NCBI GenBank assembly: GCA_963774265.1 | Contig: CAVZDU010000001.1 | Coordinates: 320,001 to 384,000 of the forward strand | Source of the DNA: an uncultured Chloroflexia bacterium | Lineage (GTDB): Bacteria > Chloroflexota > Anaerolineae > CG2-30-64-16 | Length of the DNA stretch: 64,000 bases | Reading direction: 5' to 3' | Translations under genes and position numbers: made by a program | Notes under the pieces: generated by a model | What the model saw: the letters and a program-made list of their open reading frames with translations, nothing else | Told to the model about the DNA's origin: nothing | Database searches by the model: none | Part shown: piece after piece, positions 11,418-60,055 of the stretch | How positions within the stretch are numbered: position 1 is the first letter of the stretch | Layout: each line of letters starts with the position of its first letter

Positions 11418-11425
11418 GAGCGCCT

Positions 11426-11455
11426 TGATGGGGCGCACGGTCGTGCGCCCCATCA
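11426..11455. repeat. REP-like intergenic palindrome
   Basis: TGATGGGGCGCACG-GT-CGTGCGCCCCATCA between the A-type carrier and rtcB. Confidence 0.55.
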
Positions 11456-11461
11456 TCCATC

Positions 11462-42720: not shown

Positions 42721-42743
42721 CTGACCAAGATCTGGAGCGCGAA

Positions 42744-44159
42744 ATGTTGCATCGTTCTGTTACGGACGCCCTTGTCGCCGCGATCGGGACCGATCGCGTC
42801 CTTACATCGCGGCTCGAACTCATGACCTACTCCTACGACGCGACCTGGCTGGAGGCGCTGCCTGACGTCGTGGTGTTGCCCCGGACGACGGCGGAGGTCG
42901 CCGCCGTCATGCAGATTGCCTCGCGCGCACTTATACCAGTCGTGCCCCGCGGCGCGGGCACCGGCTTATCCGGGGGCACGATACCACTCATGGGCGGCAT
43001 CGTCTTGTCCCTGACTCAAATGAAGAAGATCATCGAGATCGATCCCGAGGATTCCATCGCGGTGGTCCAGCCGGGCGTGGTCAACATGGACCTTCAACGC
43101 GCAGCACAACGCCTGGGCCTTTTCTTTCCGCCCGATCCCGCATCCTGGGAAACCGCAACCATCGGCGGCAACCTGGCCGAGAATGCCGGCGGACCCCGGT
43201 GCCTCAAGTATGGTGTGACGAAAGACTATGTTCTCGGCCTAGAAGTCGTGCTTCCAGACGGCCGCACGATGCGCACAGGCGGTCGAACCATCAAGAACGT
43301 CGCCGGTTATGACCTGACCGGACTCTTTGTCGGCTCCGAAGGCACGCTGGGCGTCATTACGGAGGCGACTCTCAAGCTCTTGCCCCAGCCAGCGCGCCGC
43401 GGAACGGTGCTCGCCGTCTTTGAGAGCGTGGAGGGGGCCTGCGCGGCCGTCAATCGTGTGCTTGGGTCTGGCGTGCTGCCTCTGACCACCGAGTTGATGG
43501 ACAGCCACACCATTCAGGCGGTTCAACGAGAGCGTAACTATGGGCTGCCCGTCGATGCTGGCGCGGTGCTCCTCATCGACGTCGAAGGCAGCGAAGAAGC
43601 CATCCATTACGAGAGCCGTGTCGTAGCGGAGGCGTGTCGCTCGGCGGGGGCTCTCGATGTGCGCTCTGCCACCGATCCAGCAGAGAGTGCTCTGCTTTGG
43701 GCAGGAAGGCGGGCCGTGTCTGCATCGCTGGCGAACCTGGGCGATAAGCTCGGTGAAGACATAGCCGTCCCGCGCAGCCAAATCCCCGAAATGGTCCGGC
43801 GGGTGCACGAAGCCAGCCAGCGGCTCGGTCTTCGCACCGTTGTGTTCGGTCATATCGGCGATGGGAATCTGCACCCTAACATCATTTGCGATCGCACAAA
43901 CCCTGAGGAGATGAAGCGCGTCGAAGAACTTGTGGCAGAAATCTTCAACGCGGCACTCAGTCTCGGGGGCACGATCACCGGCGAGCACGGTGTTGGAATC
44001 TCCAAACGACCCTATATCAGACAAGCCCTCGATCCGGTCGCATATCAAGAAATGCTCGCTGTCAAGCGTCTGCTCGACCCACAAGGCATTCTCAACCCGG
44101 GGAAGATCTTCGAAGAGACCATGACCGCGCCCGTGAGGTCCTCAGATGCAACGTTATGA
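42744..44159 (+). CDS. FAD-linked oxidase, GlcD/D-lactate dehydrogenase family
   Basis: PRGAGTGLSGG, PPDPAS, NAGGPRCLKYG, GSEGTLG, GHIGDGNLHP, GEHGVG, LNPGK. Confidence 0.9.
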   Translation: MLHRSVTDALVAAIGTDRVLTSRLELMTYSYDATWLEALPDVVVLPRTTAEVAAVMQIASRALIPVVPRGAGTGLSGGTIPLMGGIVLSLTQMKKIIEIDPEDSIAVVQPGVVNMDLQRAAQRLGLFFPPDPASWETATIGGNLAENAGGPRCLKYGVTKDYVLGLEVVLPDGRTMRTGGRTIKNVAGYDLTGLFVGSEGTLGVITEATLKLLPQPARRGTVLAVFESVEGACAAVNRVLGSGVLPLTTELMDSHTIQAVQRERNYGLPVDAGAVLLIDVEGSEEAIHYESRVVAEACRSAGALDVRSATDPAESALLWAGRRAVSASLANLGDKLGEDIAVPRSQIPEMVRRVHEASQRLGLRTVVFGHIGDGNLHPNIICDRTNPEEMKRVEELVAEIFNAALSLGGTITGEHGVGISKRPYIRQALDPVAYQEMLAVKRLLDPQGILNPGKIFEETMTAPVRSSDATL

Positions 44160-44256: not shown

Positions 44257-45249
44257 TCATAGCCACCTCCTCAGCACAGCCGACAGCGCGGCAGCCAGAA
44301 TCGCCGTGACTGGAATCGTCGTCAGCCAAGCCGTGACAATCTGCCTGGCGGTACCCCAACGAACCTTGGAGACGCGCTCGGCCGAACCGACGCCCATAAT
44401 CGCCGAGCTGACGACCTGTGTCGTACTCACAGGGCCACCTATTAGCGCGGCCATGATGATGACCGAAGCCGAGGCAAACTGCGTGGTGAACCCATGGATG
44501 GGCCGAATTTTGTAGAACTTGCCGCCCAACGTCCGGATAAGCCGCCAGCCCCCGGTGGCGGTGCCGGCCGCGATGGCCCCCGCGCAGATTGCGATGACCC
44601 ACAGCGGCACGCGGAAGCTCGGTATCGATCCGGCCGAGACCAGCCCCAACGTAATGATCCCCATCGTCTTCTGCGCGTCGTTTGTGCCGTGGGAAAGCGC
44701 TAACGCCAACGCCGTCACGATCTGCCCCCGCTTGAAAAAAATATTGATGCCCGGAGTCGCTTCACGCGCCAGAAACAGCACCGTCTTCATCACCAGGTAG
44801 CCCGCGAGCAGGCCAAGGGGGGGTGAAATGGCGAGCGCCAACAATACTTTGCCTAGCCCGGCCAACCTCACGACGCCGAATCCACTGTCAACGATCGCCG
44901 CGCCGATCAGTCCGCCCACCAGCGCGTGAGATGAACTGGATGGAATGCCCAGCCACCAAGTGAACACGTTCCAGGTGATCGCGGCGATAAGCGCAGCCAC
45001 CACGACCACAAGCCGTATCTCGCCCTCATTCAGCACTTCGTGGCCGATGGTCGTGGCAACGGCGACCCCGAATAGGAATGGACCGACAAACTCTGCGATG
45101 GCCGTGATCGTCAACGCCTGCCGGCCCGTGAGAGCACGCGAGGCGATCATCGTCGCGACAATGTTTGAGCTGTCGTGAAACCCGTTCAAGAAGTCGAAGA
45201 CCAGCGCCAACACGATCAGCAACAGCAACTGCAAGGGGACTCCAAACAC
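44257..45249 (-). CDS. PiT family inorganic phosphate transporter
   Basis: NGFHDSSN, GIPSSSSHALVGG, HGTNDAQKTMG, PVSTT. Confidence 0.93.
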   Translation of the reverse strand: MFGVPLQLLLLIVLALVFDFLNGFHDSSNIVATMIASRALTGRQALTITAIAEFVGPFLFGVAVATTIGHEVLNEGEIRLVVVVAALIAAITWNVFTWWLGIPSSSSHALVGGLIGAAIVDSGFGVVRLAGLGKVLLALAISPPLGLLAGYLVMKTVLFLAREATPGINIFFKRGQIVTALALALSHGTNDAQKTMGIITLGLVSAGSIPSFRVPLWVIAICAGAIAAGTATGGWRLIRTLGGKFYKIRPIHGFTTQFASASVIIMAALIGGPVSTTQVVSSAIMGVGSAERVSKVRWGTARQIVTAWLTTIPVTAILAAALSAVLRRWL

Positions 45250-45252
45250 ACC

Positions 45253-46221
45253 CTACTCCTTGTTGTCGCGTTCCACGGTGACCAGGCCTCTTTCGGCCAA
45301 CCAACTCAAGCCGTCAGCGATCTGTTCCGCCGAGCTGGCATTCCGGAACTCGCAAGTCCGTAAGATGTCGGTCGGGAGATGACGCGCAACCATGTTCCAC
45401 CTCATCTCCCCGTATCCCACGGGCAGGTGGTCATCCATGCCGATGATGTCGTGCAGATGCACGCCGATCATCCTGTCCGCGAAGCGTGTGAGCCAGTCCT
45501 CGTGCAGGCTGTAGCCCTTGTACTCCGATTTTTCCGCATGGCCGATGTCATGCCAGTAGCCGACCGTTTCGCCAAACCCCGACGCGAGTAGCTCATCCAG
45601 TTCGTGAATCAACGGGATATCGAAGTAATGATCGCGGTTTTCCACTCCCAGCCGGACGCCGCGCGGCGCGGCGTATCTGGCCAGCTCACCCAGGCTACGC
45701 CGCACAGACGCCAGGTGCGCAGCGGCTCGCTCGCTGCGCGCGGCCATCATTATCGATTTGGCCTCCTCGTATGCGGGGGTGTCGCGTTTGCCTTCCTTGT
45801 AAAGACGCGTCAACACGGCTTCAAGCGACTCGTCCATGTTCACCCGGCCGGAGTGGACGATCACAACCCGCGCCCCCAGATCGTGGGCCAGGTCTATGCT
45901 GCGTCGAACGGCCTCAACGCCGCGCCGCCGGTCTGCTTCGTCGATCGCAGAAATCAGCCAATCTCGCTCCTTGAGCTCTGCCACCGACACATCCGATGGG
46001 CAAGGCTCATGGACGCTGGTGATGCGCCGGCCGTTGAGGTGCACGCTCTCGAGCATGGCCGAGTCGACGCCATGATTCAGCTCGAAGCACGTGAAACCGG
46101 CCGTTTGCCCGGCCTCAAAGAACTCACCAAAACGCGCAAACCGCTGGATGCCCCACATGGTAGACAGGGCCACATGACACGTTTTCACTGGCCGCACTTC
46201 GGTTGCTTCCCTATTTGGCAC
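45253..46221 (-). CDS. Sugar-phosphate isomerase/epimerase (xylose-isomerase-like TIM barrel)
   Basis: SVHEP, VHSG, GVENR, WHDIGH, HLHD...DHLPVGYG, EFR. Confidence 0.8.
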   Translation of the reverse strand: MPNREATEVRPVKTCHVALSTMWGIQRFARFGEFFEAGQTAGFTCFELNHGVDSAMLESVHLNGRRITSVHEPCPSDVSVAELKERDWLISAIDEADRRRGVEAVRRSIDLAHDLGARVVIVHSGRVNMDESLEAVLTRLYKEGKRDTPAYEEAKSIMMAARSERAAAHLASVRRSLGELARYAAPRGVRLGVENRDHYFDIPLIHELDELLASGFGETVGYWHDIGHAEKSEYKGYSLHEDWLTRFADRMIGVHLHDIIGMDDHLPVGYGEMRWNMVARHLPTDILRTCEFRNASSAEQIADGLSWLAERGLVTVERDNKE

Positions 46222-47437
46222 TTAGAATCTCACTGATCTCACGCGTGGCCCAAAGTGCAGCGCCGGTGGTGTCGACAACCATGTCGCATGCCTCCAGCTG
46301 CGGCAGGTAGCACTTCTGAGCCATCAGAAACTGCTCTCTGAAAAACCTGTTGCGGAAGTAGTTAGGTTCGTATTTCTTCCGATAATCGACGTCTCGTTTC
46401 CATTTCCGCTTCATCCTGACCGCATCATCAGTCAGATATACCACCTTGATCCCGATCAGGTGCGCAACATCACTCAGCAGAAACGGGAAATTGCCCTCGA
46501 CCAAGACGATATCGGCCGGTTCGATCTCGATCGGAGCGCATCCCGGCTTCAGATTGCCGGCCAGGTTATGGCTGGAGGTGGCGCAAACGAAATCGTATCG
46601 AGGAGTGGCGATTTTGTGTCCCTGGCAGATGGCTTCCAGACTCTGTTTGAGAAGCTCAAAATGGAGTGCCTCTTTGCCGAGCGTGTCGATTCCTGTCTCC
46701 TCCCGATAGTCCCGGTCTGTCAGGAAGTTGTCCATCTCAATGGACGCTACTCTTGCGCCCGCCTCTTCAAGCAAGCCGCGCAGGCGCTCGACGATCTCGG
46801 TCTTGCCAGCCGCGGTTGGCCCAGCGACGGCGAAGAGGACAGGCGTTCCTTTAGCCGCGATGAGTCTCCTGGCACTTTCAACAAAGAGCTGATCAACCTC
46901 CGCATTCGCGGCCCTAAAATCCCTGTAGCCAACACCCTGGTAGCGCTCGAAGCGCTTCTGTCGCTGCTCGAAGCTCCTGAAGGGCATGCCCCCAAGGTGC
47001 GCCAACACTCCGTCGGTGAAATAGACCGTGCGGTGCAGAAAGTAGAATCCTCGGATGTCGAAGTAAAAGTGTTCGCCGACCCACTCTAGTGAGTACTCGC
47101 CCGTGACCAAACCAACAAAGAGCACGCGCGTCAGCCTGGCAATGTTCTCATCCAGCACAATCCGGCCGTCGACGCGTGGCTTGAGCTGGATCCGCGCATA
47201 GAAATCACTGCTGTTGACCCGCTTCTCGATCTCCTCCGCCCTGTCGATCTGTACCGAGCCCCAGCCCCCCTCGTCGGGGTAAAGATTCTGCAACGCATAA
47301 CGAAACTCATAAAGTTCCAGGTCCTCGACGCCTGGATTGATCCGCCTCAACTTGTCATACAACGCTTCGGCGAACAAATCCTGATCGGCGAATAGGTTTG
47401 ACACCGGCAACTCGTCCTCCGCTACACTATGCACCAT
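46211..47437 (-). CDS. Uridine-kinase/PRK-like P-loop kinase with unrecognised N-terminal domain (paralog 2)
   Basis: AVAGPTAAGKT, IEMDNF, PRYDF, LVEGNF, RKWKRD; ~190-aa N-terminal extension. Confidence 0.75.
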   Translation of the reverse strand: MVHSVAEDELPVSNLFADQDLFAEALYDKLRRINPGVEDLELYEFRYALQNLYPDEGGWGSVQIDRAEEIEKRVNSSDFYARIQLKPRVDGRIVLDENIARLTRVLFVGLVTGEYSLEWVGEHFYFDIRGFYFLHRTVYFTDGVLAHLGGMPFRSFEQRQKRFERYQGVGYRDFRAANAEVDQLFVESARRLIAAKGTPVLFAVAGPTAAGKTEIVERLRGLLEEAGARVASIEMDNFLTDRDYREETGIDTLGKEALHFELLKQSLEAICQGHKIATPRYDFVCATSSHNLAGNLKPGCAPIEIEPADIVLVEGNFPFLLSDVAHLIGIKVVYLTDDAVRMKRKWKRDVDYRKKYEPNYFRNRFFREQFLMAQKCYLPQLEACDMVVDTTGAALWATREISEILSAK

Positions 47438-48632
47438 ACTTGCCTACGCGACCCGCGTTGGCAAGCGCAATCGGCATGATGTCCTTGGCCGGCAGCACTC
47501 CCAGGCTGCCTCGCGCACAAGCGCGCTCGCCGAACTCGCCGATGCCGTCTGGGCGCACGTGCGGGGCGTACAGCAGCGTCGGCACCGGATGCCAACTGTG
47601 CGATTTAAGCACGGCCGGCGATGAATGGTCGCCACTGACGATTACCACGTCTGGCCCGAGCGACAGCAGGCGCGGCATCAGCGCATCTACCTCCTCAATG
47701 ACGCGCACCTTGCCCGCGAAGTCGCCGCTCTCGCCTGCTGTGTCGGTCTGCTTGACATGCAGATAGAAGAAATCGAAATCTCTCCAATTCTTCTCCAGCG
47801 CGGCAAACTCGTCTGCAATTGTCACGCCCTGGACGGCCAGGGTCGTCATCCCCACGAGTTTGGCAACCCCGCGATACATGCCGTTCACCGCGATGGCGGC
47901 GGCACGGAGGCCGAAAAGCTCCGCATATTGAGGCACCGCGGGAAATCGGGCGAAACCGCGCAGCAGGATCATATTGGCGGGCTGCCTGTCCCGCAACAGC
48001 CGGCCCGCTTGTGTGATGAATTGATTTGCCAGCGCTGCGGCTCGTTCGGAGTCTGGCCTGAGCGCGTTCACCGACAGGGGCTTCACGCCGATCGCTTGTG
48101 GATCCGTCTCGGTCAGGGCATCGCTCAGGCCAGCCCCTCGCATCACAAAGGCGAAACGGTGCTCCTTGACCAGCTCGACAAAGCAGTCGGCGCCGTCGAG
48201 CCGGATCGTCCGCAATAACTCCGCCAGCTCCCGGCTCGCCTCGGTCGGCAGCCGCGCGGCGCGACGATCCGTCAATACCCCCGCCGCGTCAACCGTGCAG
48301 AAATTGCCGCGCGCGGCCACGTCGTCAGGTCCCAGTTCAAAGTCGACCCCGAGCGCCTCCAGCGCCCCGCGGCCGATCTCGTACTCGAGTGGATCGTAGC
48401 CGAATATGGCAAGATGTCCCGGACCGCTGCCCGGTGTAATGCCCGGCCCCACGGGAACGGTCAGCCCCAGCGCCGATTGCGCGGCCAGCGCGTCGAGATT
48501 GGGCGTGGCCGCAGTTTCCAACTCAGTCTTGCCGCCCGGCTCCAACGGCAATCCACCGAGCCCGTCCATGATAATCATCGCAATCTTCGTGCGGGCCGGC
48601 ACAATCAAGTCTTGCAGAAACCTGAGATTCAT
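47427..48632 (-). CDS. apgM: Cofactor-independent phosphoglycerate mutase, archaeal/ApgM type
   Basis: IIMDGLGG, TELETAATPNLD, TPGSGPGHLAIFGYDP, GRGALEA, RGNF, DRRAAR, HVKQTD, SGDHSSP, HSWHPVP. Confidence 0.88.
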   Translation of the reverse strand: MNLRFLQDLIVPARTKIAMIIMDGLGGLPLEPGGKTELETAATPNLDALAAQSALGLTVPVGPGITPGSGPGHLAIFGYDPLEYEIGRGALEALGVDFELGPDDVAARGNFCTVDAAGVLTDRRAARLPTEASRELAELLRTIRLDGADCFVELVKEHRFAFVMRGAGLSDALTETDPQAIGVKPLSVNALRPDSERAAALANQFITQAGRLLRDRQPANMILLRGFARFPAVPQYAELFGLRAAAIAVNGMYRGVAKLVGMTTLAVQGVTIADEFAALEKNWRDFDFFYLHVKQTDTAGESGDFAGKVRVIEEVDALMPRLLSLGPDVVIVSGDHSSPAVLKSHSWHPVPTLLYAPHVRPDGIGEFGERACARGSLGVLPAKDIMPIALANAGRVGKYGA

Positions 48633-48690: not shown

Positions 48691-49875
48691 CTAGAGGATT
48701 TCGGCCATTTCCGGCGTTACCCATATGGCTGCGTCGGTCGTATCAACAACAATGTCGCACACCTGCATTTGGGGCTGATAACAGTCCATGGCCCTCAGAA
48801 ACTGAGTCCTGAAGAAACGGTTGCGAAAGTAGTTGGGATCATACTTCTGCCGATAGTCAATATCGCGTTTCCATTTCCGTTTGAGCCTGATCGGATCATC
48901 TGTCAGGTACACCACTTTAACTCCGATGTAGTCAGCCAGCTCCTTGCTCTGAAATGGAAAATTGCCCTCAAGGAAAATGACATCAGCCGGCTCAATCTCC
49001 AGTGGAGCGCAGCCCGGCTTCAGGTTGCCGTCCAAATCGTGGCTGGAGACAGACGAAGTGTAGCGAGGAATAGCGATCCTTTGCCTTTGGATGATCGCCT
49101 GAAGGCTCTCCATAAAGAGTCCAAAATGGTAGGCTTCTCTCCCTAGCGAATTGATGCCCATCTCATCCCGATAGTCGTTGTCGAGAAGGAAGTTATCCAT
49201 CTCGATGGAGGTAACCTTTCTTCCTAGTTGCTCAAGCGCACATCGCAAGCGCGCGACGATCTCGGTCTTTCCAGCGGCCGTGGGCCCGGCAAGCGTGACA
49301 AGAATGGGCGTGCCCTTCGCTGCGACGAGCCTCTTGACACTCTCGATAAAGCACTGATCCACCTGGGCATTAGCCTCTTTGAAGGCTTTGTAGCCCACAC
49401 TCTGGCACCGTTCAAATCGCTTTTGCCCCTGATCGAAGCGCCTCCATGGCTCGCCGTCAAAATGCGCCAACACCTGATCCGTGAAATAGGTGGTGCGACT
49501 CAGGAAGAGAAAACCTCTGATGTCGAAATAGAAATGCGTTCGAACCCACTCTTCTGAGTAGTCTCCCGTGACCAGGCCCACGAAAAGCATGTCGGTCAAC
49601 TGCACGATGTTTTCGTCCAGCACAATCTTGCCGTCGACCAGCGGCTTAAGTTGGATGCCAACATAGAAGTCGCGCGTGCCCATCCGCAGTTCGATATCTG
49701 CCTGGGCATCCAGCTTTACAGACGCCCAGCCTCCGGGCTTAGGGCACAGGTTGTCCAGTGCGTAACGGAATTCGTAGAGTTCCATTTCCTCCACCGCTGG
49801 GGCAATCGACTTCATCTTCTCGTACAGGAGAGAGGAAAAAACATCGGGATTGGACAACATGTGCGATGCCGACAT
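48691..49875 (-). CDS. Uridine-kinase/PRK-like P-loop kinase with unrecognised N-terminal domain (paralog 1)
   Basis: TLAGPTAAGKT, IEMDNF, LEGNF, RKWKRD; colinear with 46211..47437. Confidence 0.75.
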   Translation of the reverse strand: MSASHMLSNPDVFSSLLYEKMKSIAPAVEEMELYEFRYALDNLCPKPGGWASVKLDAQADIELRMGTRDFYVGIQLKPLVDGKIVLDENIVQLTDMLFVGLVTGDYSEEWVRTHFYFDIRGFLFLSRTTYFTDQVLAHFDGEPWRRFDQGQKRFERCQSVGYKAFKEANAQVDQCFIESVKRLVAAKGTPILVTLAGPTAAGKTEIVARLRCALEQLGRKVTSIEMDNFLLDNDYRDEMGINSLGREAYHFGLFMESLQAIIQRQRIAIPRYTSSVSSHDLDGNLKPGCAPLEIEPADVIFLEGNFPFQSKELADYIGVKVVYLTDDPIRLKRKWKRDIDYRQKYDPNYFRNRFFRTQFLRAMDCYQPQMQVCDIVVDTTDAAIWVTPEMAEIL

Positions 49876-49886: not shown

Positions 49887-52184
49887 CTAGCTCGCGACAA
49901 CCTGCCGCCCGATGCCGAACACAAACGCATCGTACGCTCGTTTGGTCTTGGCATAGTTGCCATTGCGATCGAGCGCGATGCCTCTCCCAACGCCCGAAAC
50001 GATTTGCCCGATGCCGATCTCGGCCACCCGGCGTCCCAGTTTCTCCAACAGCGCGGGCGCACTCCCCGGCTCAGTGCTGCGGCCGTCAAAGATCACATGC
50101 ACGTAGACGTCGTTCAAGCCATACGCCTTGGCCATGCGCAGTAGCGCCAGCGGATAGTCAATCGAGCCATGTGAGCTTCTTTCCGAGAGCAGGCCGATCA
50201 GGTGCAGGCTGGCCCCGCGCTGCCGGACGTCCGCTATGGTGCGCAACAAAACCTCGTTGGTGTAGAACGAGCCATCCTGCATCGCCAGGCCTAGCCGCAC
50301 GTCGTCCTGCAGCACCACGCGGCCCGCGCCGATGTTCATGTGACCGGCCTCTGAATTGCCTGGCTTGTCCGCCTGCAGTCCCGCCGCCTCGCCAGCAGCC
50401 TGCAACTGGGCAAGTCCATAGCGCTGCGTCAGTGCGTCCCAGGTCGGCGTCGCTGCGAGCCAGATCGGATTATTCTCGTCCTCCTTGCCGATACCCCAGC
50501 CGTCGAGGATGATGAGCAGCACGCGGCGCGCCCCTCCCCAGTCATGCTCGAGCGCCAGACTTGCGCCATCCATCGTTTGCGGCTGCGGGATGCCGAGCGC
50601 ATGCAGTACGGTCGGCGCGATGTCGGCCAGCTTGCCATTGCGCAGGCGCACGAGCGACGGCCCAGCCGGATCCAGCAGGAGGAACGGCACGGGGTTGGCC
50701 GTGTGCGCGACGTGGGGCGTGCCGTCAGGGGTGGTCAGCTCTTCCAGGTTGCCGTGGTCGGCGGTCACGAGGACGACATAGCCAGCGGCGAGCGCGGCGT
50801 CCACCACCTGCCCCAGCCGCGTATCTACGGCCTCGGCGCACGCGAGCTTGGCGGCGCGGTTAGCCGTGTGGCCGATAACGTCGCCGTTGGCGAAGTTAGT
50901 TACGATCAGATCGTAGTGATCGGCGATGCCGAGCGCCACCCCGGCGGAGACCTCCGCCAGGCTCAGCTCCGGCGCCTGTTCAAAGGGAATCCTGGTGGGC
51001 GAAGGGATGCAGACATCGTGCTCGCCGAAGAATGGCTGGCTATTCCCGCCGTTGAAGAAAAACGTGACGTGTGCGAATTTCTCCGATTCGGCGATACGCA
51101 GTTGGCGCAGACCGGCGCGGGCCACAGCCTCTCCCAGGGTGTCCCTGATCTTCGTCGGTGCGAAGGCCACCGGCAGGTCCTTGAATTTCTCGTGGTAGAG
51201 CGTCAGGATGACGAAGGGGAGGTTGCTGAAATCGCGGCGCGGAAAGCGATCGAACCCCCGCTCGGTGAATGCCTCGGTCAACTGGATCTGGCGTTCGCCT
51301 CGCCTGCAGCAAAAGATCACAGCGTCGCCATCCTCAATCCGGCCAATCGGGGCGCCCTGCGCGTCCACCAGAACCAACGGTTCGAGGGCGTAATCGGTTT
51401 CGCCCTCGCGATACAACTCCCTCACTCCCTCGGCCAGAGCAACAGCGTCGGACGGCACAGGACGTGACGGGAAGATCTCCAGCAGGTCGCTGAGCTTGTG
51501 GATGATGAGATCGGGCCGGTCTTCGTCCGGGACAGGTGCGTCGCGGTCGTCGGGACTCGCCAGGATGATCACACTCCCGAAGCCGGCCTTGCGTGTCCCG
51601 AGGACATCCCGGGCGGTGTTATCGCCTACGTAGGCGCATCGCGCCGGATCAACGCCAGCCAACCGCGCGGCTTCCTGGTAAATGGCCGGGTCCGGTTTGC
51701 GCTTCCCGAAGACGGACGAGAGGATGACCGACTTGAAATAGGGGGCAAGTCCGTCGGCCTCAAGCCAGTCGGGGATCTCCCGGCTGGTGATGACGTTGCT
51801 GATGATCCCCAGAATGTAGCCGCGGCGGTGCAGCTCGAGGATGACTTGCCGGGCATCTTCCTGCACCACCCGCCGCCCCATGGTCTGGCGGTACTGGTAG
51901 GTCAGCTCAACCGCCAGCCCCGCGATCTCGTCGTCCGGATAATCGGGCAGCAGCCAGCGCGTCCACAGCTCGGCTTCAGGGGCTTCGATCAAGTGCTCGG
52001 TCGCCCACTTTCGGTAGACCTGGTAGTGCCGGTCAATCTCCTGGCAGAAGGTCTCGGGGTCTACGTGAGTCCCGACCAGCGTGGCGATCTGCTGCCGCGC
52101 CCGCGCCTGATGCGCCTCGTCTTTCAAGAGGATGCGCAAGGTATTGCCGAGGTCCAGGAAAACGGCATCAATCTCAGGAGTCAT
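49887..52184 (-). CDS. HAD hydrolase fused to circularly permuted GpmI-type phosphomutase
   Basis: FLDLGNTL...KPDP...GD HAD, then GpmI C-half (ESEKFAHVTFFFNGG, NGDVIGH, TADHGN, DIAPT), then GpmI N-half (LIILDGWG, NSEAGH, DGRST). Confidence 0.88.
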   Translation of the reverse strand: MTPEIDAVFLDLGNTLRILLKDEAHQARARQQIATLVGTHVDPETFCQEIDRHYQVYRKWATEHLIEAPEAELWTRWLLPDYPDDEIAGLAVELTYQYRQTMGRRVVQEDARQVILELHRRGYILGIISNVITSREIPDWLEADGLAPYFKSVILSSVFGKRKPDPAIYQEAARLAGVDPARCAYVGDNTARDVLGTRKAGFGSVIILASPDDRDAPVPDEDRPDLIIHKLSDLLEIFPSRPVPSDAVALAEGVRELYREGETDYALEPLVLVDAQGAPIGRIEDGDAVIFCCRRGERQIQLTEAFTERGFDRFPRRDFSNLPFVILTLYHEKFKDLPVAFAPTKIRDTLGEAVARAGLRQLRIAESEKFAHVTFFFNGGNSQPFFGEHDVCIPSPTRIPFEQAPELSLAEVSAGVALGIADHYDLIVTNFANGDVIGHTANRAAKLACAEAVDTRLGQVVDAALAAGYVVLVTADHGNLEELTTPDGTPHVAHTANPVPFLLLDPAGPSLVRLRNGKLADIAPTVLHALGIPQPQTMDGASLALEHDWGGARRVLLIILDGWGIGKEDENNPIWLAATPTWDALTQRYGLAQLQAAGEAAGLQADKPGNSEAGHMNIGAGRVVLQDDVRLGLAMQDGSFYTNEVLLRTIADVRQRGASLHLIGLLSERSSHGSIDYPLALLRMAKAYGLNDVYVHVIFDGRSTEPGSAPALLEKLGRRVAEIGIGQIVSGVGRGIALDRNGNYAKTKRAYDAFVFGIGRQVVAS

Positions 52185-53604
52185 TGACCCTCAGTGGGAA
52201 GATATCCAGCAGCTCGCGGCACGAGCGAATGATCACGTCGGGCATGTTGTCGCCGGTGGGAGGCTCCCTCTTCTTCTTGGCCTCATCCATCAGGATGATG
52301 ATCATCCCGAAGCCGGCCCGCCGGGTGCCCTCGACATCACGAAGTGGATTGTCACCGACATAGACGCATCGCGCCGGCTCGACGCCGATCCGCCGCGCGG
52401 CCTCCCAGTAGATCTCGGGCCCAGGTTTCCGGTTTCTGACCTTGGACGATAGCACCACCGCCTGGAAGTAGCCGGTGAGGCCGTCGGATTCGATCCAATC
52501 CGGGATCTCGGTCTCGGTGATGGTATTGGCGATGATCCCCAGGCGGTAGCCGCGCCGGTTCAACTCCAATACGGTTTCTTTTACGTCAGGCCGCGGGACG
52601 CGCCGCCCATCGTGATCGCGCCACAGTCTCGTGAGCTTTCCTGCCAGAGGGCCGATCTTCGCGGCCGGGAAATCGGGCAGCATGAAACGGGTCCACAATT
52701 CTTTCTCGGATGCTTCGGTCAGGGTCTCAAAAGACCACTTTCGGTAGGCTTTCCATCGTTCATCCAACTGTGCGAAGAACGTCGTCTCGGGGGTTTCTTG
52801 CGCTCCCACCAAAGACCTGAGCTGCTGCCTGGCCTCAGCCTGAAACGTCGCGTCTTCCACCACGATGCGCAGGGTGTTGCCGACGTCTAAAAAGATGGCT
52901 TCGATGTCCGGAATTCTCGCCGCAGCCTGTGGCGCTGCTGGTCGCTCGAATATGGGAACGTCAAGCAGGTCCGGCAGCGTCTCGGCGTAATAGTCAGCCC
53001 TGGCTTGCGGGTCGTATCGCACCGCCACGGTGGCCAGCCCTACTTGTTTGGCCCCCTCAAGCTCCCTGGCATCATGACCTACGAAGGCCGATTCAACCAC
53101 CGAGAGCCGCGCTTGCTGGACTGCGTTCAGGAAGATGGCAGGATCTGGTTTGCGCACGCCCAATGTTGAGGAGCACGCCACGACATCGATATATTCGGCA
53201 ACCCCTACTTGCTCAAGCCAATCCATTTTCTGTTCGAGCGGATAGATTGTGTCTGTGACAATGCCCAATAGAAAGCCGCGCCGCTTCAGCACCGCCAAGG
53301 TCTCTGGGCCACCCGGGACCGCGCGCACTGCGTTCGCGTGCGCCAGGATCTTCGCGACCAGCGCTGCGCGCTCTTCCGATCTGTCCACGCGATGGGTCCG
53401 GAGTACCTGGTCCCAATAGGCGACGGGATCGACGAAGCCCACGTTCGCACCTTGGTACATACTCTCGAGGAGCGCCTTATCCTCGGCAGAGAGGGGACCT
53501 GCGTAGCCCGCTTCCATGAGGATGCGGGCAGCGGCGTCATCCGTCCGTTCATCCCGCTCATAAAACACATCGGCTGCATCGAAGAAAATGCCTTTGATCG
53601 CCAT
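52174..53604 (-). CDS. Tandem double-HAD hydrolase
   Basis: Domain 1 FFDAADVF...KPDP...VGHD; domain 2 FLDVGNTL...KPGP...VGDNPLRD. Confidence 0.85.
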   Translation of the reverse strand: MAIKGIFFDAADVFYERDERTDDAAARILMEAGYAGPLSAEDKALLESMYQGANVGFVDPVAYWDQVLRTHRVDRSEERAALVAKILAHANAVRAVPGGPETLAVLKRRGFLLGIVTDTIYPLEQKMDWLEQVGVAEYIDVVACSSTLGVRKPDPAIFLNAVQQARLSVVESAFVGHDARELEGAKQVGLATVAVRYDPQARADYYAETLPDLLDVPIFERPAAPQAAARIPDIEAIFLDVGNTLRIVVEDATFQAEARQQLRSLVGAQETPETTFFAQLDERWKAYRKWSFETLTEASEKELWTRFMLPDFPAAKIGPLAGKLTRLWRDHDGRRVPRPDVKETVLELNRRGYRLGIIANTITETEIPDWIESDGLTGYFQAVVLSSKVRNRKPGPEIYWEAARRIGVEPARCVYVGDNPLRDVEGTRRAGFGMIIILMDEAKKKREPPTGDNMPDVIIRSCRELLDIFPLRVNDS

Positions 53605-53667
53605 CTCAATCGCCTCTTGCCATCCACCCCGGATGATGGATCGCCGTGCGGGCACTAGCACCCGTCG

Positions 53668-54432
53668 TTAGTGGTCTGTGGTCGACAGGGTTAGGGCCGC
53701 CACGACTTCCATAAGATCGTGAATTACGTGGTCCGGCGGTTCGGTGTCCGTTTCCCGGTCCAGTTTGTCGGTGAGAAACGACTTGATCAGAATCACAAGC
53801 CCATAACCGGCGCGACGCGCGCCGCTCACGTCCCGCGACACAGTGTCGCCCACGTAGGCGCATTCGATCGGCAGCAGTCCCAGCAGCCGGGCCGTTTCGA
53901 GGAAGATGTGCGGGTTGGGCTTGCGCCAGCCGAAGTTCGAGCTTGTCACGACGGGATCGAAGAAATGAGCGATGCCGTACTCGGCCAGTTTCACCTGTAC
54001 CATCCGGCGGCTGATGATGTTGGAAATCACCGATAGTCGCAAGCCGCGTTCGCGCAACGCCTCCAGAGCGACAGGCGCTTCCGGCCGCAGGGTGCGAATA
54101 TAGAAATGTGTCTCGTAGAAGAACGTGAGGTCTTCGGCGGCTTCCAGGAGACGATCTCTGGGCAGGCCGTGATCGGGAAAGATGTATTCCGTCCAGACCT
54201 GCCCCGGTGAGAGTTCGACCTCGCTAATCTCGCGCCAGCTTGTGTATGCCTTCATACCGGAAAGGACCGTCGCCTGCAATTCGGGCAGCGACAGATCCGG
54301 AGCGAGGCCCATCGCCGCCAGCAGTCGCTTCAACCCGCACGTGGCTTCGGTGCGCGTCGCATCATCGTAATACAGGTTTTCGAGCGTGCCGCCCAGGTCA
54401 AAGACGACGGCCTGGATGGGGTGGATCGCCAT
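53668..54432 (-). CDS. HAD family hydrolase
   Basis: FDLGGTL, ISN, KPNPHIF, YVGDTVSRD. Confidence 0.88.
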   Translation of the reverse strand: MAIHPIQAVVFDLGGTLENLYYDDATRTEATCGLKRLLAAMGLAPDLSLPELQATVLSGMKAYTSWREISEVELSPGQVWTEYIFPDHGLPRDRLLEAAEDLTFFYETHFYIRTLRPEAPVALEALRERGLRLSVISNIISRRMVQVKLAEYGIAHFFDPVVTSSNFGWRKPNPHIFLETARLLGLLPIECAYVGDTVSRDVSGARRAGYGLVILIKSFLTDKLDRETDTEPPDHVIHDLMEVVAALTLSTTDH

Positions 54433-54536: not shown

Positions 54537-55868
54537 CTACGGAGCGGTAAGCAGACTCACTGCCCAGAAGTCGCGTATTTGGCTGTTGTTCTTATACGCG
54601 AATAGATCATCGCTCGGCCAGAGCGAGACTTCAGATAGCGGAGGCATGCCTTCGGCAACGGTAAGGCCTTCGGCCGGTGGGTAGACACCGATCTTGTTCC
54701 AGGGATCGAAACCATCCTCCGAGAGAGCGAATTTGATGAACAGTTTGGCAGCATTGGGGTGCGCAGACTTGTTGGCAATGGCCAGATAGTTGGCTTTCAA
54801 CACACCGCTCACTGGTTTGAGAGTGAGACAGGGCGCCATGGCCAATTCTCCATCCATCGTAGTCTCATAGCTGTCCCAACCGGTCCAGCCATACCCGGGT
54901 TCCACTGCTTTGTCCATGCCCAGCGTGGCATAGGCCGCGTCGACCTCATCGCCGCCGGGCTGGATGCCGGGTTTGTTCTGGGCCAGCTTCTTCAGGAACA
55001 GGTAACCTGCATTGGAGACGTCCTTGCTATACGCGGGGTCGGTGGTCCAGTCTTTGCCGTAGAATTCCTGGTAGTTCGCGGCCATTTGATCGGCGTGTTC
55101 TACGATCAGGGCGATCTTGGCTGTGGTGCTGGAATCAGCGATGGGATCCTCCATGTAGAACTTGCCCTTTAGTTTCGGTTCGGTCAGCTCCCACCAGCTC
55201 TTGAGCGGGCAGCCGTCCGGGTTGATCTCCTGGTTGTAGCCTATGACATCCGCTGCGCGGCGCGAAAGCGCATACGGCCGTTCTGGGGTCACCTCCTTTT
55301 CCACCACACCCGGGGGGAGGTACCACCAGATCCATTGATTGGGCATAAACTCGCCGTACAGCAGATGCCCGTCGCTGTTGAACCAGACATCCCCGACGAC
55401 GTTCCCGGCTTCCTGCTCTGCCTGCATCTTGACGGCGATGTCATCGGTGTCACCACCCTCCAGTGCGATGTCGGGGTACAGCTCATGCCATTTGTCGAGT
55501 AGCTTCTCAAACTTGGAAGAGTTGGCGTAGACAACCACTTTCCCTTCCTTCTTTGCTGCCGCTTCGACGGCCGCCCAGTCCTCCTCGGCGGGCTGATACG
55601 GTCCCAGGCCATTTGCTTTCGCCCATTCCTCCGCAGCAGTGAGAGTGGGTCCTGGTACGGCGGTCGGCGGGGCTGCGGTCGGCGGGGCTACGGTTGGCGG
55701 TACGGCGGTCGGCGCCGGGGCCGCGGGAGCAGCGGTCGGCGGCACGGCGGTGGGCGGCACGACGGTCGGCGCCGGGGCCGCGGGAGCAGCGGTCGGCGCC
55801 GGGGAGGCGCAGGCCGCCAACAAGGTGATAAGCAAGAATGCGAGAGTAATCCTACTGAACCCTTTCAT
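54537..55868 (-). CDS. ABC substrate-binding lipoprotein (AfuA/FbpA-like cluster)
   Basis: Lipobox LAAC, P/A/T linker, AAKKEGKVVVY, DVWF, AHPNAAKLFIKF. Confidence 0.85.
   Translation of the reverse strand: MKGFSRITLAFLLITLLAACASPAPTAAPAAPAPTVVPPTAVPPTAAPAAPAPTAVPPTVAPPTAAPPTAVPGPTLTAAEEWAKANGLGPYQPAEEDWAAVEAAAKKEGKVVVYANSSKFEKLLDKWHELYPDIALEGGDTDDIAVKMQAEQEAGNVVGDVWFNSDGHLLYGEFMPNQWIWWYLPPGVVEKEVTPERPYALSRRAADVIGYNQEINPDGCPLKSWWELTEPKLKGKFYMEDPIADSSTTAKIALIVEHADQMAANYQEFYGKDWTTDPAYSKDVSNAGYLFLKKLAQNKPGIQPGGDEVDAAYATLGMDKAVEPGYGWTGWDSYETTMDGELAMAPCLTLKPVSGVLKANYLAIANKSAHPNAAKLFIKFALSEDGFDPWNKIGVYPPAEGLTVAEGMPPLSEVSLWPSDDLFAYKNNSQIRDFWAVSLLTAP
55706..55798 (-). repeat. 36-bp exact repeat (57-bp period) in the Pro/Ala/Thr linker
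   Basis: CGGTCGGCGCCGGGGCCGCGGGAGCAGCGGTCGGCG at 55706-55741 and 55763-55798. Confidence 0.8.
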
Positions 55869-55971
55869 GTCTCCTCCTGGTTACCAGAGAATAGGTTGTC
55901 CACAGGACGCGTGATCGATCGAGGGCCGACGCTTCATCTGAGATTGGGTTGTTCAATAACTCCTCCTTTGG

Positions 55972-57055
55972 TCATGGCGAAATCAGATCGCCGCTCGCTT
56001 TGTCGTACAGGTTCAGAGTCGCGGGGTCGAAGCTCAGCCAGATCCGCTCATCCATCTTGGTCTTGCTGATGCCCATTACTTTGACTGTGACCTCAGTGTT
56101 TTCCAGGCGCGCTGATGATGGTTGAGTCGGCTCCCGACGGCAGAACCGAATATGCGGTAAACTCCGCAGCGCCCGGGATGGGTGTTGTCGAGATGGCGAT
56201 ATCTTCCGGCCGGGCGGCCACCACCACTTCTCCGGTCGCGTGGTGCGTGTTGAGGGTGACCTTGAATCTGCCCAAGTCGACCGAATTATGCCCATCCACG
56301 ACACCATTCAGCAGGTTCACTTTGGGGTTGCCGATAAAATCGGCCACAAACAGGTTGGCCGGATAGTGATACACGCGGTCGGGGGTGTCTAATTGCTGCA
56401 GGACGCCCTCCTTCATCACTGCAATCTGGGAAGACATGGTCAACGCTTCCACCTGGTCGTGTGTGACATAGACCGTAGTCGCCCCGGAAACATGGTGCAG
56501 GTGTTTGATTTCCGCCCGCATATCCATGCGCAAGCGTGCGTCCAGGTTGGACAGTGGCTCATCCATCAAGAAGACCTTGGGGCGGTAGGCCAGCATGCGG
56601 GCGAGAGCGATGCGCTGTTGTTGCCCGCCGCTCATCTCGCGCGGATAGCGGTCCGCGTACCCCTCCATTTGCACTTCGGCCAGGGCTTCTCTTGTCCGCT
56701 TTTCAATTTCGGCCCTGGGCTGTTTCTGGATCTCCAGCGCGAAGGTCATGTTTTTTTGGACCGTCATGTGTGGCCAGAGGGCATAGTTCTGAAAGACAAG
56801 ACCCAGGTCGCGCTTGCCGGGAGGTAGCGAGATGCCCCGCTCGCGAGAAAAGACCAGCTTGTCCCCGATAAGGATCTCTCCTCCATCTGGGTCTTCCAGG
56901 CCAGCCAGGCAGCGCAGCAAGGTCGTCTTGCCGCATCCGGAAGGGCCCAGAAGGGTCAGGAAGCTTCCGGATTCGACAGTCAGGCTGACACCATTGACAG
57001 CGACGACGCTGCCGAAACGCTTGGTGAGGTTGCGAATCATGATGGTTGTTGACAC
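55972..57055 (-). CDS. ABC transporter ATP-binding protein, FbpC/PotA type (frameshift near 56105)
   Basis: GPSGCGKTT, FQNYALWPH, MSGGQQQR, MDEPLSNLD, VTHDQ; C-terminal TOBE in alternate frame. Confidence 0.92.
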
Positions 57056-57068
57056 GGTTGCCTCTCCC

Positions 57069-58904
57069 TTACATTCCAAGACCCTTCTTAAGACTGCCGC
57101 CCCGGATTCGACTGATGAAAAAGTAACCAATTGCAACGAGCACGATCAGGATCAAGATGACAGCGTTCGCCATCTGGGCATCGCCGTTTTCGGTATAGAA
57201 CATGGTCTGGCTGGCGAGCACTTGGGTTTGTGGCGTGACCAGCAGGATGATCAAAGACAGTTCGCGCATGGTGGTGATAAACGTCAGCAGGAATCCGGCG
57301 ACAAAGCCGCTGCTGGTGAGCGGAAAGATAATGCGCCTGAAACGCTGCCAGATGTTGGCGCCGGCGACCATGCCCGCCTCCTCCAGTTCCCGGCCGACCT
57401 GCATCATGGCCGAAACCCCCGAACGGGAGGAATAGGGGATATGTTTGGCCACCGAGACTACCACCAACAGGGTGAAAGTCCCGTACAACGCTGGGATCGG
57501 CCCCAGTGGCTTAATGAACATCGCAATGTAGACTGCGCCAAAGGCAATGCCGGGGATCACGTACGGAATGAAGGCCAATTGCTCGACCAGTTTACTTAGC
57601 CGGGTACCCCGGCCTTTGACAATAGCATAGCCGAGAATAATACCCAGGAGGGCCGTGAATAAGGCCGTCCATATCGAAAGCCGGATGGAGTTCCAGGCGG
57701 TCATGTAGATTTTCGGGTTGCGCAGGACTCCAGGCTCTCCATGGTTATAAATCGTGTTGCGCGCTCCAATCCAGTGCTGTAAGGAGAGATTGCTCAGGCT
57801 GTAATTCCCATCCTGCAACATCAATGTGGAATAGACCAGAAGGCCCAACGGAACGACGATGACAAAGATCTGAAACACGATCGCGGCGATCAGCGCAACA
57901 CGTTTCATCTTTCCCAGCTTGTTCACCTGCGCAACGAAGCCTCGTCCGCCAATCGTCTCGTAGCTCTTGCGCGTCCCGACCAATCTCTGGTTGAGTCGAA
58001 TAATAGTCATAGACATTAGAACCAATACGATTGCCAGCACAAAGGCATCCGCTTTATCTCCAACGCCTATACTGCCGCGGATCATGGTGGCCACTACATA
58101 GTACCTGACCGGTGTTCCGAGGATATTTGGCCCACCGAAGGTGCCCAGCACCTTGGAAAAAGTCATGATGAAACCCGAGAGGATCGCCGGCAGGACGAGC
58201 GGGAAGGTGATCTTGCGCAGAATGCGCCAACGGCTGGCGCCCGCCAATTCTCCAGCTTCTTCCAGGTTGGAATCAATTGACATCAACGCCGCCGACACGA
58301 ACAGGAAAAAGAACGTGTAGTAGTGCAGCGCGCTGCAGATGATGATGGGCACCGGCCCGTACGATAGCCAGCTTGGGGGGCTTTGTCCCACCAGGTACTC
58401 AAAAACTCCCGACGTTCCGCCAGAAAGCCTGTTCTTGAAAAACACGAGCCAAGCCTGGGCCAGGGTCCAGGATGGCATAATGTAGGGGATCACCGCCAGT
58501 TGATTGACGAGCTTTCTGCCCGGCATATCGGTGCGGACGACCAACCAGGCCAAGGAACCGCCGATCAAAAGCGCAAGCAGGGTGGCTCCAATTGCTATGG
58601 TCATCGAATGCTGAAGCGGGGTATACATGTAGATTTTCCCGAAAACGCCCGTAAGCATCCTGACATAGTGAAAAATCGTGAGTCCGCCGACCTCAGCGTC
58701 CGGGACGCGGGTGAGATCATGAGGCTGCCAGGTCACCGTAGTCGCAACCATGCGAAACAAAGGTATGATGACCATGTAGAACATCAAGACCAGCATGATC
58801 AAGGACAGAACGACTCGGGCGCTCGTCAGCCAGCGGATGAACCTTCTGGAGGAGGCAAGGAGTCGCAACGAAAACAGTTGCCGAGACGCCGGAGTGACAG
58901 CCAT
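57069..58904 (-). CDS. ABC permease, fused double-domain AfuB/FbpB type
   Basis: RTDMPGR, two EAA motifs (LEEAGELAGAS, LEEAGMVAGA), many TM helices. Confidence 0.92.
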   Translation of the reverse strand: MAVTPASRQLFSLRLLASSRRFIRWLTSARVVLSLIMLVLMFYMVIIPLFRMVATTVTWQPHDLTRVPDAEVGGLTIFHYVRMLTGVFGKIYMYTPLQHSMTIAIGATLLALLIGGSLAWLVVRTDMPGRKLVNQLAVIPYIMPSWTLAQAWLVFFKNRLSGGTSGVFEYLVGQSPPSWLSYGPVPIIICSALHYYTFFFLFVSAALMSIDSNLEEAGELAGASRWRILRKITFPLVLPAILSGFIMTFSKVLGTFGGPNILGTPVRYYVVATMIRGSIGVGDKADAFVLAIVLVLMSMTIIRLNQRLVGTRKSYETIGGRGFVAQVNKLGKMKRVALIAAIVFQIFVIVVPLGLLVYSTLMLQDGNYSLSNLSLQHWIGARNTIYNHGEPGVLRNPKIYMTAWNSIRLSIWTALFTALLGIILGYAIVKGRGTRLSKLVEQLAFIPYVIPGIAFGAVYIAMFIKPLGPIPALYGTFTLLVVVSVAKHIPYSSRSGVSAMMQVGRELEEAGMVAGANIWQRFRRIIFPLTSSGFVAGFLLTFITTMRELSLIILLVTPQTQVLASQTMFYTENGDAQMANAVILILIVLVAIGYFFISRIRGGSLKKGLGM

Positions 58905-59800: not shown

Positions 59801-59870
59801 GAGTACTCCCGAGTCCTCAAAAGAGCTCTTGCGTGGATAATCAGGAAGCACGACCGCCAAATGATGCAAG

Positions 59871-59911
59871 ATTATACCACATATTAATTCAGAATGCAAG
59901 AGAGATTTCAT
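59871..59911 (-). promoter_or_regulatory. Promoter of the RpiR operon with candidate RpiR box
   Basis: TTGCAT-N17-TATAAT with TGn; ATGAAATCTCTCTTGCAT pseudo-palindrome overlaps the -35. Confidence 0.6.
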
Positions 59912-59950
59912 GTCAGAATCTTCTCTTGACAACCGCGATGCCCTGGTAGT

Positions 59951-59994
59951 ATACTCTGACCGTCTTGCACACGTGTGCAAGACGGTCAGAGTAT
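59951..59994. promoter_or_regulatory. 44-bp perfect palindrome with central LacI-type operator
   Basis: ATACTCTGACCGTCTTGCACACGTGTGCAAGACGGTCAGAGTAT equals its own reverse complement; TTGACA at 59926 upstream. Confidence 0.75.
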
Positions 59995-60055
59995 GGAGTA
60001 ACAAGGCCCGCATTTCCATCAGCCAGCCCGCTCGTTCGGAGGAGTCAGGAGTGTC

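Follow-up and report, generated by a model that had tools for sequence, protein, structure and literature searches.

Canonical cofactor-independent phosphoglycerate mutases (iPGMs; GpmI, TIGR01307, EC 5.4.2.12) are represented by the structures 1EJJ, 1O98 and 5VPU, and background on their active site is given in parts of PMC5382265 and PMC12077085. Here we describe an open reading frame (ORF) of an uncultured Chloroflexia bacterium (GTDB lineage Chloroflexota; Anaerolineae) that encodes the two iPGM domains in circularly permuted order, behind a domain of the HAD superfamily. The ORF lies at 49887-52184 on the minus strand of a window of 64,000 nucleotides (assembly GCA_963774265.1, contig CAVZDU010000001.1, positions 320,001 to 384,000), to which all coordinates refer unless another locus is named. 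An earlier note, made from the letters of this window, had read the ORF as a natural circular permutant with altered specificity, channelled to a phosphatase. Judged from its sequence, the gene encodes an iPGM homologue of permuted order and altered pocket, joined to the HAD that is its usual neighbour, and lies in a conserved operon.

The ORF shares with canonical iPGMs both domains, the serine nucleophile, the two-metal ligands and residues H123, R153, R185, R191, R261, R264 and K336 (numbered throughout as in 1EJJ, the Geobacillus stearothermophilus enzyme). Canonical iPGMs are 36-47% identical to it over the matched stretches. They differ from it in several respects: in the ORF the chain ends lie at about 211-218, within the transferase domain, and 9 residues link the former termini; of 85 near-invariant positions, 17 are altered (D154S, N259C, F260R and others); it sits in a probably accessory operon instead of serving a housekeeping role; and a HAD domain is fused to it. 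More remote relatives are the ApgM-type (archaeal-type) iPGMs and phosphopentomutase, which have the Metalloenzyme core (PF01676) in common with the ORF and whose models weakly match its C-terminal metal-site region, but which carry another inserted cap domain (PF10143) and are unpermuted. The HAD domain resembles subfamily IA (TIGR02253 (CTE7)/NANP (HDHD4)/PH1655) in its Rossmannoid core, helical cap and motifs I-IV, although its motif I reads D-x-G-N-T and not D-x-D-x-T; PH1655 reads DLDDT. An importer encoded nearby is built like those of the FbpABC/AfuABC/P5PA class (7F6E, 4R72, 6WCE), with one binding protein, a fused two-domain permease and an ATPase. In profile comparison, its binding protein has low similarity to the FbpA/AfuA class (E 2.6e-15 to iron-type proteins, 1.5e-5 to AfuA).

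A permuted mutase module fused to a HAD domain

The ORF listing and translation give a single unbroken frame of 765 amino acids plus stop, made up of a HAD domain and a circularly permuted iPGM-type module, all on the minus strand. The HAD domain (residues 1-237, 51474-52184) carries motif I (D11-L-G13-N-T), motif II (S129), motif III (K163) and motif IV (D188/D193). It is followed by a fusion linker (residues 238-251, FPSRPVPSDAVALA; 51432-51473) with a model pLDDT (predicted local distance difference test) of about 83-92. The first part of the module (residues 252-544, 50553-51431) equals canonical iPGM 218-509, where the transferase domain ends and the C-terminal portion of the phosphatase domain follows, and carries R295, R298, K369, D435, H439, D476, H477 and H494. 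The old C-terminus is joined to the old N-terminus by residues 545-553 (LEHDWGGAR, 50526-50552), a loop in the model with pLDDT 95-98. Residues 554-759 (49908-50525) form the second part, which equals canonical 5-210 and carries D561, the nucleophile S611, H615, H672, R702, S703 (canonical D154), R734 and R740.

Profile and sequence searches agree on this order. A phmmer search of all PDB chains aligned residues 554-759 without gaps to 1EJJ 5-210 and residues 252-544 to 1EJJ 218-509 (E 9.5e-115). Pfam assigned Hydrolase/HAD_2 to residues 5-235 and recovered both iPGM domains, the alkaline-phosphatase-like metal domain (PF01676, 1e-59) and the transferase domain (PF06415, 1.9e-46). Metalloenzyme and iPGM_N each matched in two stretches with their order swapped, the best being Metalloenzyme profile positions 61-251 at residues 328-533 and iPGM_N positions 4-130 at residues 634-760. 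TIGR01307 likewise matched in two swapped pieces, both on the protein and on the genome, with model positions 214-503 before 2-207. Its score of 466, against a cut-off of 330.65, is a sum over these two out-of-order stretches, and NF003897 scored 375.7 against a cut-off of 862. The collinear order of GpmI, with an N-terminal phosphatase part, the transferase domain and the remaining phosphatase part, was not found in the ORF. All motifs listed in the earlier note lie where it had placed them (VLLIILDGWG is residues 555-564, 50493-50522), and the changes it pointed out are real, with CRRGER for NFRxDR, ERSSHG for DGGVHS and DRN for DRD. The HAD-fused permuted iPGM-type ORF is confirmed, far beyond chance.

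AlphaFold2, run on an 81-row alignment, produced a confident model (mean pLDDT 95.2; predicted template modelling score 0.77), in which the joint at 541-554 is a confident loop and the linker between HAD and mutase somewhat less confident. The top Foldseek matches in the PDB were iPGMs, with E-values of about 1e-20 and TM-scores of 0.47-0.50; Foldseek aligns sequentially and superposes one half of the permutant, and these scores under-report the similarity. The HAD part matched 3VAY, PH0459-derived designs, HDHD3 and NANP with target-normalised TM-scores of 0.57-0.70. We infer that the permuted module folds like an iPGM and uses the same chemistry.

The permuted order recurs well beyond this genome. 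In a collection of 5.8 billion proteins, the best 119 of 7988 significant matches all had it. Nine of the clusters also carried the HAD (P0002-P0009 and P0011), and the rest were of about 528 amino acids with a one-piece alignment over the mutase part; in P0110, 523 residues aligned without gaps at 72% identity. The best 150 representatives of 50%-identity clusters comprised 21 permuted, 124 canonical and 5 partial proteins. A scan of one genome per species found at least 540 stretches encoding a relative. The best 80 of these were without exception collinear with the ORF, at 62-76% identity and all in Chloroflexota, and they included the cultured Levilinea saccharolytica KIBI-1. Contigs from other public sequencing runs spanned both joints: one (X3) covers 49887-50782 and crosses the permutation joint, and another (X1) covers 51239-51638 and crosses the HAD/mutase joint at 51473. 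These contigs come from relatives at about 91-92% identity. Misassembly at the junction, which the earlier note had raised as a finding that would overturn its reading, is contradicted by these contigs and by the recurrence of the order in independent assemblies. The reading of a natural circular permutant is fully supported, by a large clade conserved across phyla.

Among 301 genomes sampled from the class, all but one of which were 90% complete or better, a count by hand gave the following: 21 carried the window's subtype (at least 59% identity), 22 only a second permuted subtype (42-47% identity), 34 canonical two-piece matches and 224 no match. Five of the 21 carried the second permuted subtype too, and a permuted and a canonical gene occurred together in none of the 301. 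The second subfamily, represented by 15 loci at 41-47% identity (L178:924-2498 in G026; L180-L193), had no shared neighbours and no gene of the operon described below. It keeps S-S-H-G and has GRRG for DGRD and DIRGER for NFRPDR. More distant permuted members belong, by the names given in their sources, to Limnochordia, Ca. Desulfofervidus auxilii, Pseudomonadota and Bacillota, where they are labelled iPGM or 'hypothetical protein'. A metagenome scan, based on an alignment of the distant permuted proteins and the pattern GNSE[ATV]GH, returned 74 canonical loci, 5 scored as permuted and 1 partial; four of the five were of the same operon type and the fifth (L102) was a tandem canonical pair. 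Matches in a protein atlas were limited to the query proteins' own and related iPGM or uridine-kinase clusters. Public DNA runs with partial matches (share at most 0.09) were labelled as wetland, soil, sediment and wastewater metagenomes, and no RNA run matched among the public runs searched. The named genera and the labels of metagenome-assembled genomes recovered were those of anaerobic-digester and sludge lineages. No description of a circularly permuted phosphoglycerate mutase was found in the literature searched, which covered few subscription journals, and neither 'permut' nor 'Chloroflex' occurs in the text of a 2025 survey of 338 iPGAMs. The permuted family is widespread and apparently undescribed.

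Pocket and ancestry of the permuted mutase

We related the permuted and canonical proteins in a tree of 27 permuted sequences, rotated by script, and 62 canonical ones. Twenty-three permuted rows formed a single clade, here called cp-main, with an SH-aLRT (Shimodaira-Hasegawa-like approximate likelihood ratio test) support of 100. Three further permuted proteins (P0134, P0141 and P0147) adjoin it, and the branch that cuts off these 26 has support 94. Because 26 of the 27 permuted proteins lie on one side of a supported branch, the simplest reading is one ancient permutation event for the family. Chains of cp-main begin near canonical 211-218 and extend to the old C-terminus; after a joint of some 9 residues they resume at the old N-terminus and end near 210. 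The permuted module of the remaining protein, P0227, fell weakly among canonical sequences. P0227 is a giant predicted protein of 5027 amino acids on a 15.6-kb contig, with the permuted-order iPGM module at residues 3858-4373, and may represent an independent permutation or a gene-call artefact. Two metagenome contigs (L102:1825-4041 and L103:415-3579) carry head-to-tail tandem iPGM genes in canonical order, 9-15 nt apart. Such pairs could be the starting arrangement for a duplication-fusion-truncation route to the permutant.

The catalytic core is retained, as the earlier note had proposed for the serine nucleophile and the metal ligands. In the alignment to 1EJJ, S62 (S611) and the ligands D12, D403, H407, D444, H445 and H462 (D561, D435, H439, D476, H477 and H494) are kept in the ORF and in all 13 cp-main representatives, as are H66, H123, R185, R191, R261, R264 and K336. 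R153 (R702) is kept in the ORF and in 10 of the 13. The phosphoglycerate contacts of the B. stearothermophilus enzyme are H123, R153, D154, R185, R191, R261, R264 and K336. In the ORF, seven of these eight are kept and D154 is not.

Alongside this conservation, 17 of the 85 near-invariant columns (one residue in at least 90% of the 124 canonical proteins) are replaced in cp-main, 11 of them in the transferase half, and 68 are kept. G121, V122 and S124 have become S, S and G (13/13 each). D154, which is aspartate in 121 of the 124 canonical proteins, is Ser or Gly in 12 of 13 representatives and Ser in the ORF (S703), and N259, asparagine in 122 of 124, is Cys in 9 of 13. Further replacements are F260 to R/K (10/13), P262 to G (12/13), D263 to E (11/13), T334 to S (13/13) and M404 to V/I/L (13/13). 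We defined a cp-main signature as S-S-H-G for G-V-H-S, Ser/Gly at D154, C/R at N259/F260 and G-E at P262/D263; the ORF has all of it (S670, S671, G673, S703, C293, R294, G296 and E297). By the B. stearothermophilus structure, D154, N259 and F260 presumably lie in the substrate pocket. On balance the pocket has one acid less and one base more, which suggests that its substrate is more anionic.

P0134, P0141 and P0147, one of which is labelled only 'bacterium' by its source, keep the canonical residue, at least as the commonest, at all 17 positions altered in cp-main. Because their pocket is canonical and that of cp-main is not, permutation and pocket change are separable. These three are probably true phosphoglycerate mutases (PGMs) in permuted order.

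Fusion, operon and genomic context

The fusion of HAD and mutase in one ORF, as described in the earlier note, is the exception among relatives, where separate neighbouring genes are usual. In 80 of the 85 loci examined, the gene immediately upstream on the same strand encodes a HAD; without three duplicates, the count is 77 of 82. In 61 loci, the best match of the upstream HAD among the window's HADs is the fused domain. Besides the window, five loci (three distinct) are fused, and independent assemblies (G004, G005, P0002-P0009 and P0011) carry this fusion too, down to the short linker. In L. saccharolytica, HAD and mutase are separate genes (L052), the HAD at 9175-9960 and the mutase beginning with the Met at residue 43 of the frame 9848-11566. 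The linker of the fused form replaces the HAD tail, intergenic spacer and mutase head of separate-gene genomes. In a FastTree phylogeny of 95 mutase parts, including 15 fused rows (12 distinct), 12 fused rows fell into one 13-row clade with support 95, and L025, P0008 and P0009 fell outside it. The fused state needs at least five changes on this tree, four of them forced by well-supported branches, and fused forms fall in at least four places; the fusion arose more than once. Because fusion is recurrent and adjacency near-universal, we argue that HAD and mutase act on the same metabolite and are functionally coupled. A complex prediction for the separate L. saccharolytica mutase and HAD scored 0.15 and 0.10, against a mark of 0.32, and weighs neither for nor against the pairing.

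Channelling to a phosphatase, the remaining part of the earlier reading, goes beyond the data: adjacency and fusion speak for coupling only, and the HAD is atypical. Its orthologues conserve D11 (39/39), S129 (39/39), K163 (41/41), D188 (40/41) and D193 (40/40), but the Asp+2 general acid/base of DxDxT is absent, with Gly in 39 of 39 orthologues. Across 226 motif-I sites from all operon HAD paralogues in the loci, position +2 was G in 204, N in 12, A in 10 and D in none, and all four HAD domains of the window's operon are atypical in motif I. The fused HAD scored 95.2 bits against TIGR02253, below the cut-off of 169.75, and weakly matched phosphoglycolate phosphatase models. Such Asp+2-less HADs could favour good leaving groups, use another residue as the acid or form a long-lived phospho-aspartate. 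The Escherichia coli sugar-1-phosphatase YihX has a similar DLGN motif.

The genes around the fusion form an operon on the minus strand, in the order RpiR, permease, ATPase, binding protein, HAD, double HAD, HAD-mutase, PRK-like kinase, ApgM, second PRK-like kinase, TIM barrel and PitA. The double-HAD gene (495 amino acids, 52174-53661) shares its last 11 nt with the start of the fused ORF; the HAD gene before it (254 amino acids, 53668-54432) has motif I DLGGT. The ABC importer as a whole occupies 54537-58904, with an FbpA/AfuA-class lipoprotein binding protein (54537-55868), an ATPase (56093-57136) and a fused two-domain permease (57069-58904) whose best NCBIfam match, PhnU2, is under its cut-off. 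The RpiR-type regulator (HTH_6 and SIS, 58924-60103) is split over two frames, with HTH_6 at 59585-60103 and SIS at 58924-59613; in L. saccharolytica it is one ORF of 289 amino acids (L052:14102-14971). It is either a frameshifted pseudogene or carries an assembly indel. On the other side, a PRK/uridine-kinase-like kinase (394 amino acids, 48691-49875) starts 11 nt past the stop of the fused ORF. It is followed by an ApgM-type phosphomutase (401 amino acids, 47427-48632; NF003160 555.8 bits, cut-off 468), the sole PF10143 gene found in the window's genome, and by the second PRK-like kinase (408 amino acids, 46211-47437). Foldseek PDB matches of the PRK-like kinase cover the C-terminal ~200 residues (uridine-cytidine kinase, PRK), and both paralogues have a well-conserved N-terminal domain of ~190 amino acids with pLDDT 93 and no Pfam match. 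The operon closes with a xylose-isomerase-like TIM barrel with a weak CbiR phosphodiesterase match (45253-46221) and a PHO4/PitA phosphate transporter (44257-45249). A GlcD-like FAD-linked oxidase (FAD_binding_4 and FAD-oxidase_C, 42687-44159, plus strand) converges with the PitA end.

Most of these genes recur in the 47 related loci of at least 20 kb: HAD in all 47, the ATPase in 45, the permease in 44, RpiR in 43, ApgM and the PRK-like kinase in 41 each, the binding protein in 35, the TIM barrel in 12 and PitA in 2. PHO4/PitA was found in the window's operon and in 5 of 84 loci. The conserved operon consists of 3-5 HAD domains, an ApgM-type mutase, 1-2 PRK-like kinases, RpiR and an FbpA/AfuA-class importer. 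The 80 loci from the genome collection are flanked by LacI (42), UxaE-like epimerase (28), Zn-dependent alcohol dehydrogenase (Zn-ADH; 24), GFO/IDH/MocA (24), SDR (23), PfkB (22), MFS (20), 6PGDH (19), LarA-like (18) and TIM barrel (11) families. After the operon in the window's genome come LacI, two Zn-ADHs, ROK, a CUT2-type ABC system, GFO/IDH/MocA and another TIM barrel. By family, these flanking genes point to catabolism of a polyol, cyclitol or sugar acid, and all matches to inositol-pathway (Iol-type) models were far under the cut-offs (~98-102 bits against 450, and 29.6 against 300). Past the window, positions 3340-7199 of L179 (G000:C1:383000-401000) hold a 735-amino-acid ORF with two Peripla_BP_4 stretches and then a 319-amino-acid copy, as well as a GFO/IDH/MocA ORF with the C-terminal domains only. 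Both the sugar-type binding-protein region and the GFO/IDH/MocA ORF look duplicated or frameshifted.

Ordinary glycolysis in these genomes appears to be served by other enzymes. The permuted gene was present in 6 of 41 relatives, and the other 35 were also without a canonical iPGM. A GpmA-type cofactor-dependent PGM (dPGM) occurs in all eight genomes of the genus, including the window's own (seven of seven excluding it), and within the genus ApgM is confined to the four genomes with the operon. Of five further genomes with the operon, four have dPGM and the operon ApgM alone, and the fifth, whose operon is without ApgM, has ApgM elsewhere. A second ApgM occurs in G025, and in G026 one lies on another contig. 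In each of the 11 carriers examined there is another candidate PGM (dPGM or non-operon ApgM). Because presence is patchy and another candidate occurs in every carrier examined, the permuted mutase is probably not the ordinary glycolytic PGM and probably has an accessory role. In the window's genome, the dPGM (G000:C9:119164-119896, minus strand; L091/L092/L095) matches TIGR01258 in three pieces, in different frames and with one TGA, and in all seven genus relatives it is intact. The split may reflect an indel of the assembly or decay of the gene. Should the dPGM really be broken, glycolysis in this organism could depend more on the operon mutases.

Candidate functions and significance

The explanation that we favour, and hold to be about evenly balanced between right and wrong, is an accessory phosphomutase-phosphatase pair in which mutase and HAD would handle, in sequence, a strongly anionic phospho-carbohydrate other than phosphoglycerate. 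Because the transferase half is remodelled throughout the clade, the preferred substrate is probably not plain 2- or 3-phosphoglycerate (2PG/3PG). The importer would supply a more negatively charged phospho-carbohydrate, for example a bisphosphate, a phospho sugar acid or an inositol phosphate. Two metal ions (bound by D561/S611/D476/H477 and by D435/H439/H494) would activate Ser611, which would take the substrate's phosphoryl group and return it to a neighbouring hydroxyl once the substrate had re-oriented in the transferase half. The HAD, with Asp11 as nucleophile and a Mg site but no Asp+2 acid, would act on the same metabolite in the step directly preceding or following the mutase; in the simplest case it would hydrolyse the isomer formed by the latter. 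Freed of phosphate, the carbon skeleton would go on to the products of the neighbouring dehydrogenase and isomerase genes under LacI control. The altered specificity proposed in the earlier note is indirectly supported by the clade-wide replacement of near-invariant positions, mostly in the transferase half, by the accessory operon and by a separate candidate housekeeping PGM in the carrier genomes examined, but ordinary 2PG/3PG activity is compatible with the same sequences.

Several observations weigh against the favoured explanation. Seven of the eight substrate contacts are unchanged and the summed TIGR01307 score is above its cut-off, which together leave room for true 2PG/3PG mutase activity, and the pocket location of D154, N259 and F260 is presumed from the B. 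stearothermophilus structure. The second permuted subfamily, in the same class but without a conserved neighbourhood, also fits a housekeeping-type enzyme. ApgM is the sole neighbour with a function above a curated threshold, the kinases have no clear place in a dephosphorylating route, and a HAD without Asp+2 may be slow or no simple phosphatase.

Ordinary PGM chemistry is an unlikely but substantial alternative, in which the mutase would be fused to a phosphatase of the phosphoglycerate/phosphoglycolate type, the operon would handle imported or kinase-made phosphoglycerates and the PRK-like kinases would be glycerate kinases. S62, H66, H123, R153, R185, R191, R261, R264, K336 and all metal ligands are conserved, TIGR01307 scores above its cut-off, and the HAD has its weak phosphoglycolate phosphatase matches; P0134, P0141 and P0147, with all 17 canonical positions, indicate that permutation alone need not alter function. 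What speaks against it is the replacement of D154 and N259 across cp-main among 17 altered columns, the low NF003897 score, the patchy distribution and the presence of ApgM in the operon and dPGM in the genomes. A more specific version of the favoured explanation, distinctly unlikely in this narrow form, has inositol phosphates imported, their phosphate shifted by the permuted enzyme between adjacent ring hydroxyls and stripped by the HADs, and the inositol passed to a Thermotoga-type oxidative pathway. The gain of positive charge in the pocket, the FbpA/AfuA/P5PA class of the binding protein, the weak IolM and IolO/IolE matches, the LacI, UxaE-like, Zn-ADH, GFO/IDH/MocA, PfkB and TIM-barrel genes flanking the loci and the same gene types after the operon in the window's genome all fit it. 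However, every Iol-type match is far under its curated cut-off, 6PGDH, LarA-like and SDR neighbours equally suggest sugar acids or polyols, and the kinases again have no explanation. The flanking families that fit this version are those of the T. maritima inositol pathway.

The concentration of altered columns in the transferase half (11 of 17) could also mean that the permuted module has lost the transfer step, leaving a plain metallo-phosphatase or phosphodiesterase of the alkaline-phosphatase superfamily and, in the fusion, a two-headed hydrolase for phosphate scavenging. The PHO4/PitA genes and the weak CbiR match of the TIM barrel would suit such a role, but the transferase domain and its four arginines, needless for a hydrolase, are strictly conserved (13/13) and several HADs are already at hand, and we regard it as highly unlikely. 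An assembly chimera, or a frameshift falsely joining HAD and mutase, is scarcely credible: frame splits do affect two genes of this assembly, RpiR in the window and dPGM elsewhere in the genome, but the same fusion and linker occur in independent assemblies, a contig from another run bridges the joint and the permuted order is universal in the family.

We tentatively propose, while thinking it more apt to fail than to hold, that the cp-main enzymes are not phosphoglycerate mutases but phosphoserine-based phosphomutases of a new specificity class, whose substrates would be multiply charged phospho-carbohydrates, for example inositol phosphates, bisphosphates or phospho sugar acids. Its members would work with Asp+2-less HADs and PRK-like kinases, which together would form an undescribed pathway of organophosphate import and processing, common in Anaerolineae and present also in Limnochordia and other phyla.

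Work on enzyme evolution and protein engineering profits from natural circular permutants that gave rise to large clades of new function. Chain ends within the transferase domain, as the family shows, are compatible with the hinge-closing two-domain design of iPGM. The recurrent HAD-mutase fusion offers a direct handle, as one polypeptide could be expressed and screened. A glycolytic step is probably assigned wrongly in metabolic reconstructions of Anaerolineae. Were the substrate an inositol phosphate or some other abundant organophosphate, the pathway would have a bearing on phosphorus and carbon turnover in soils and sediments.

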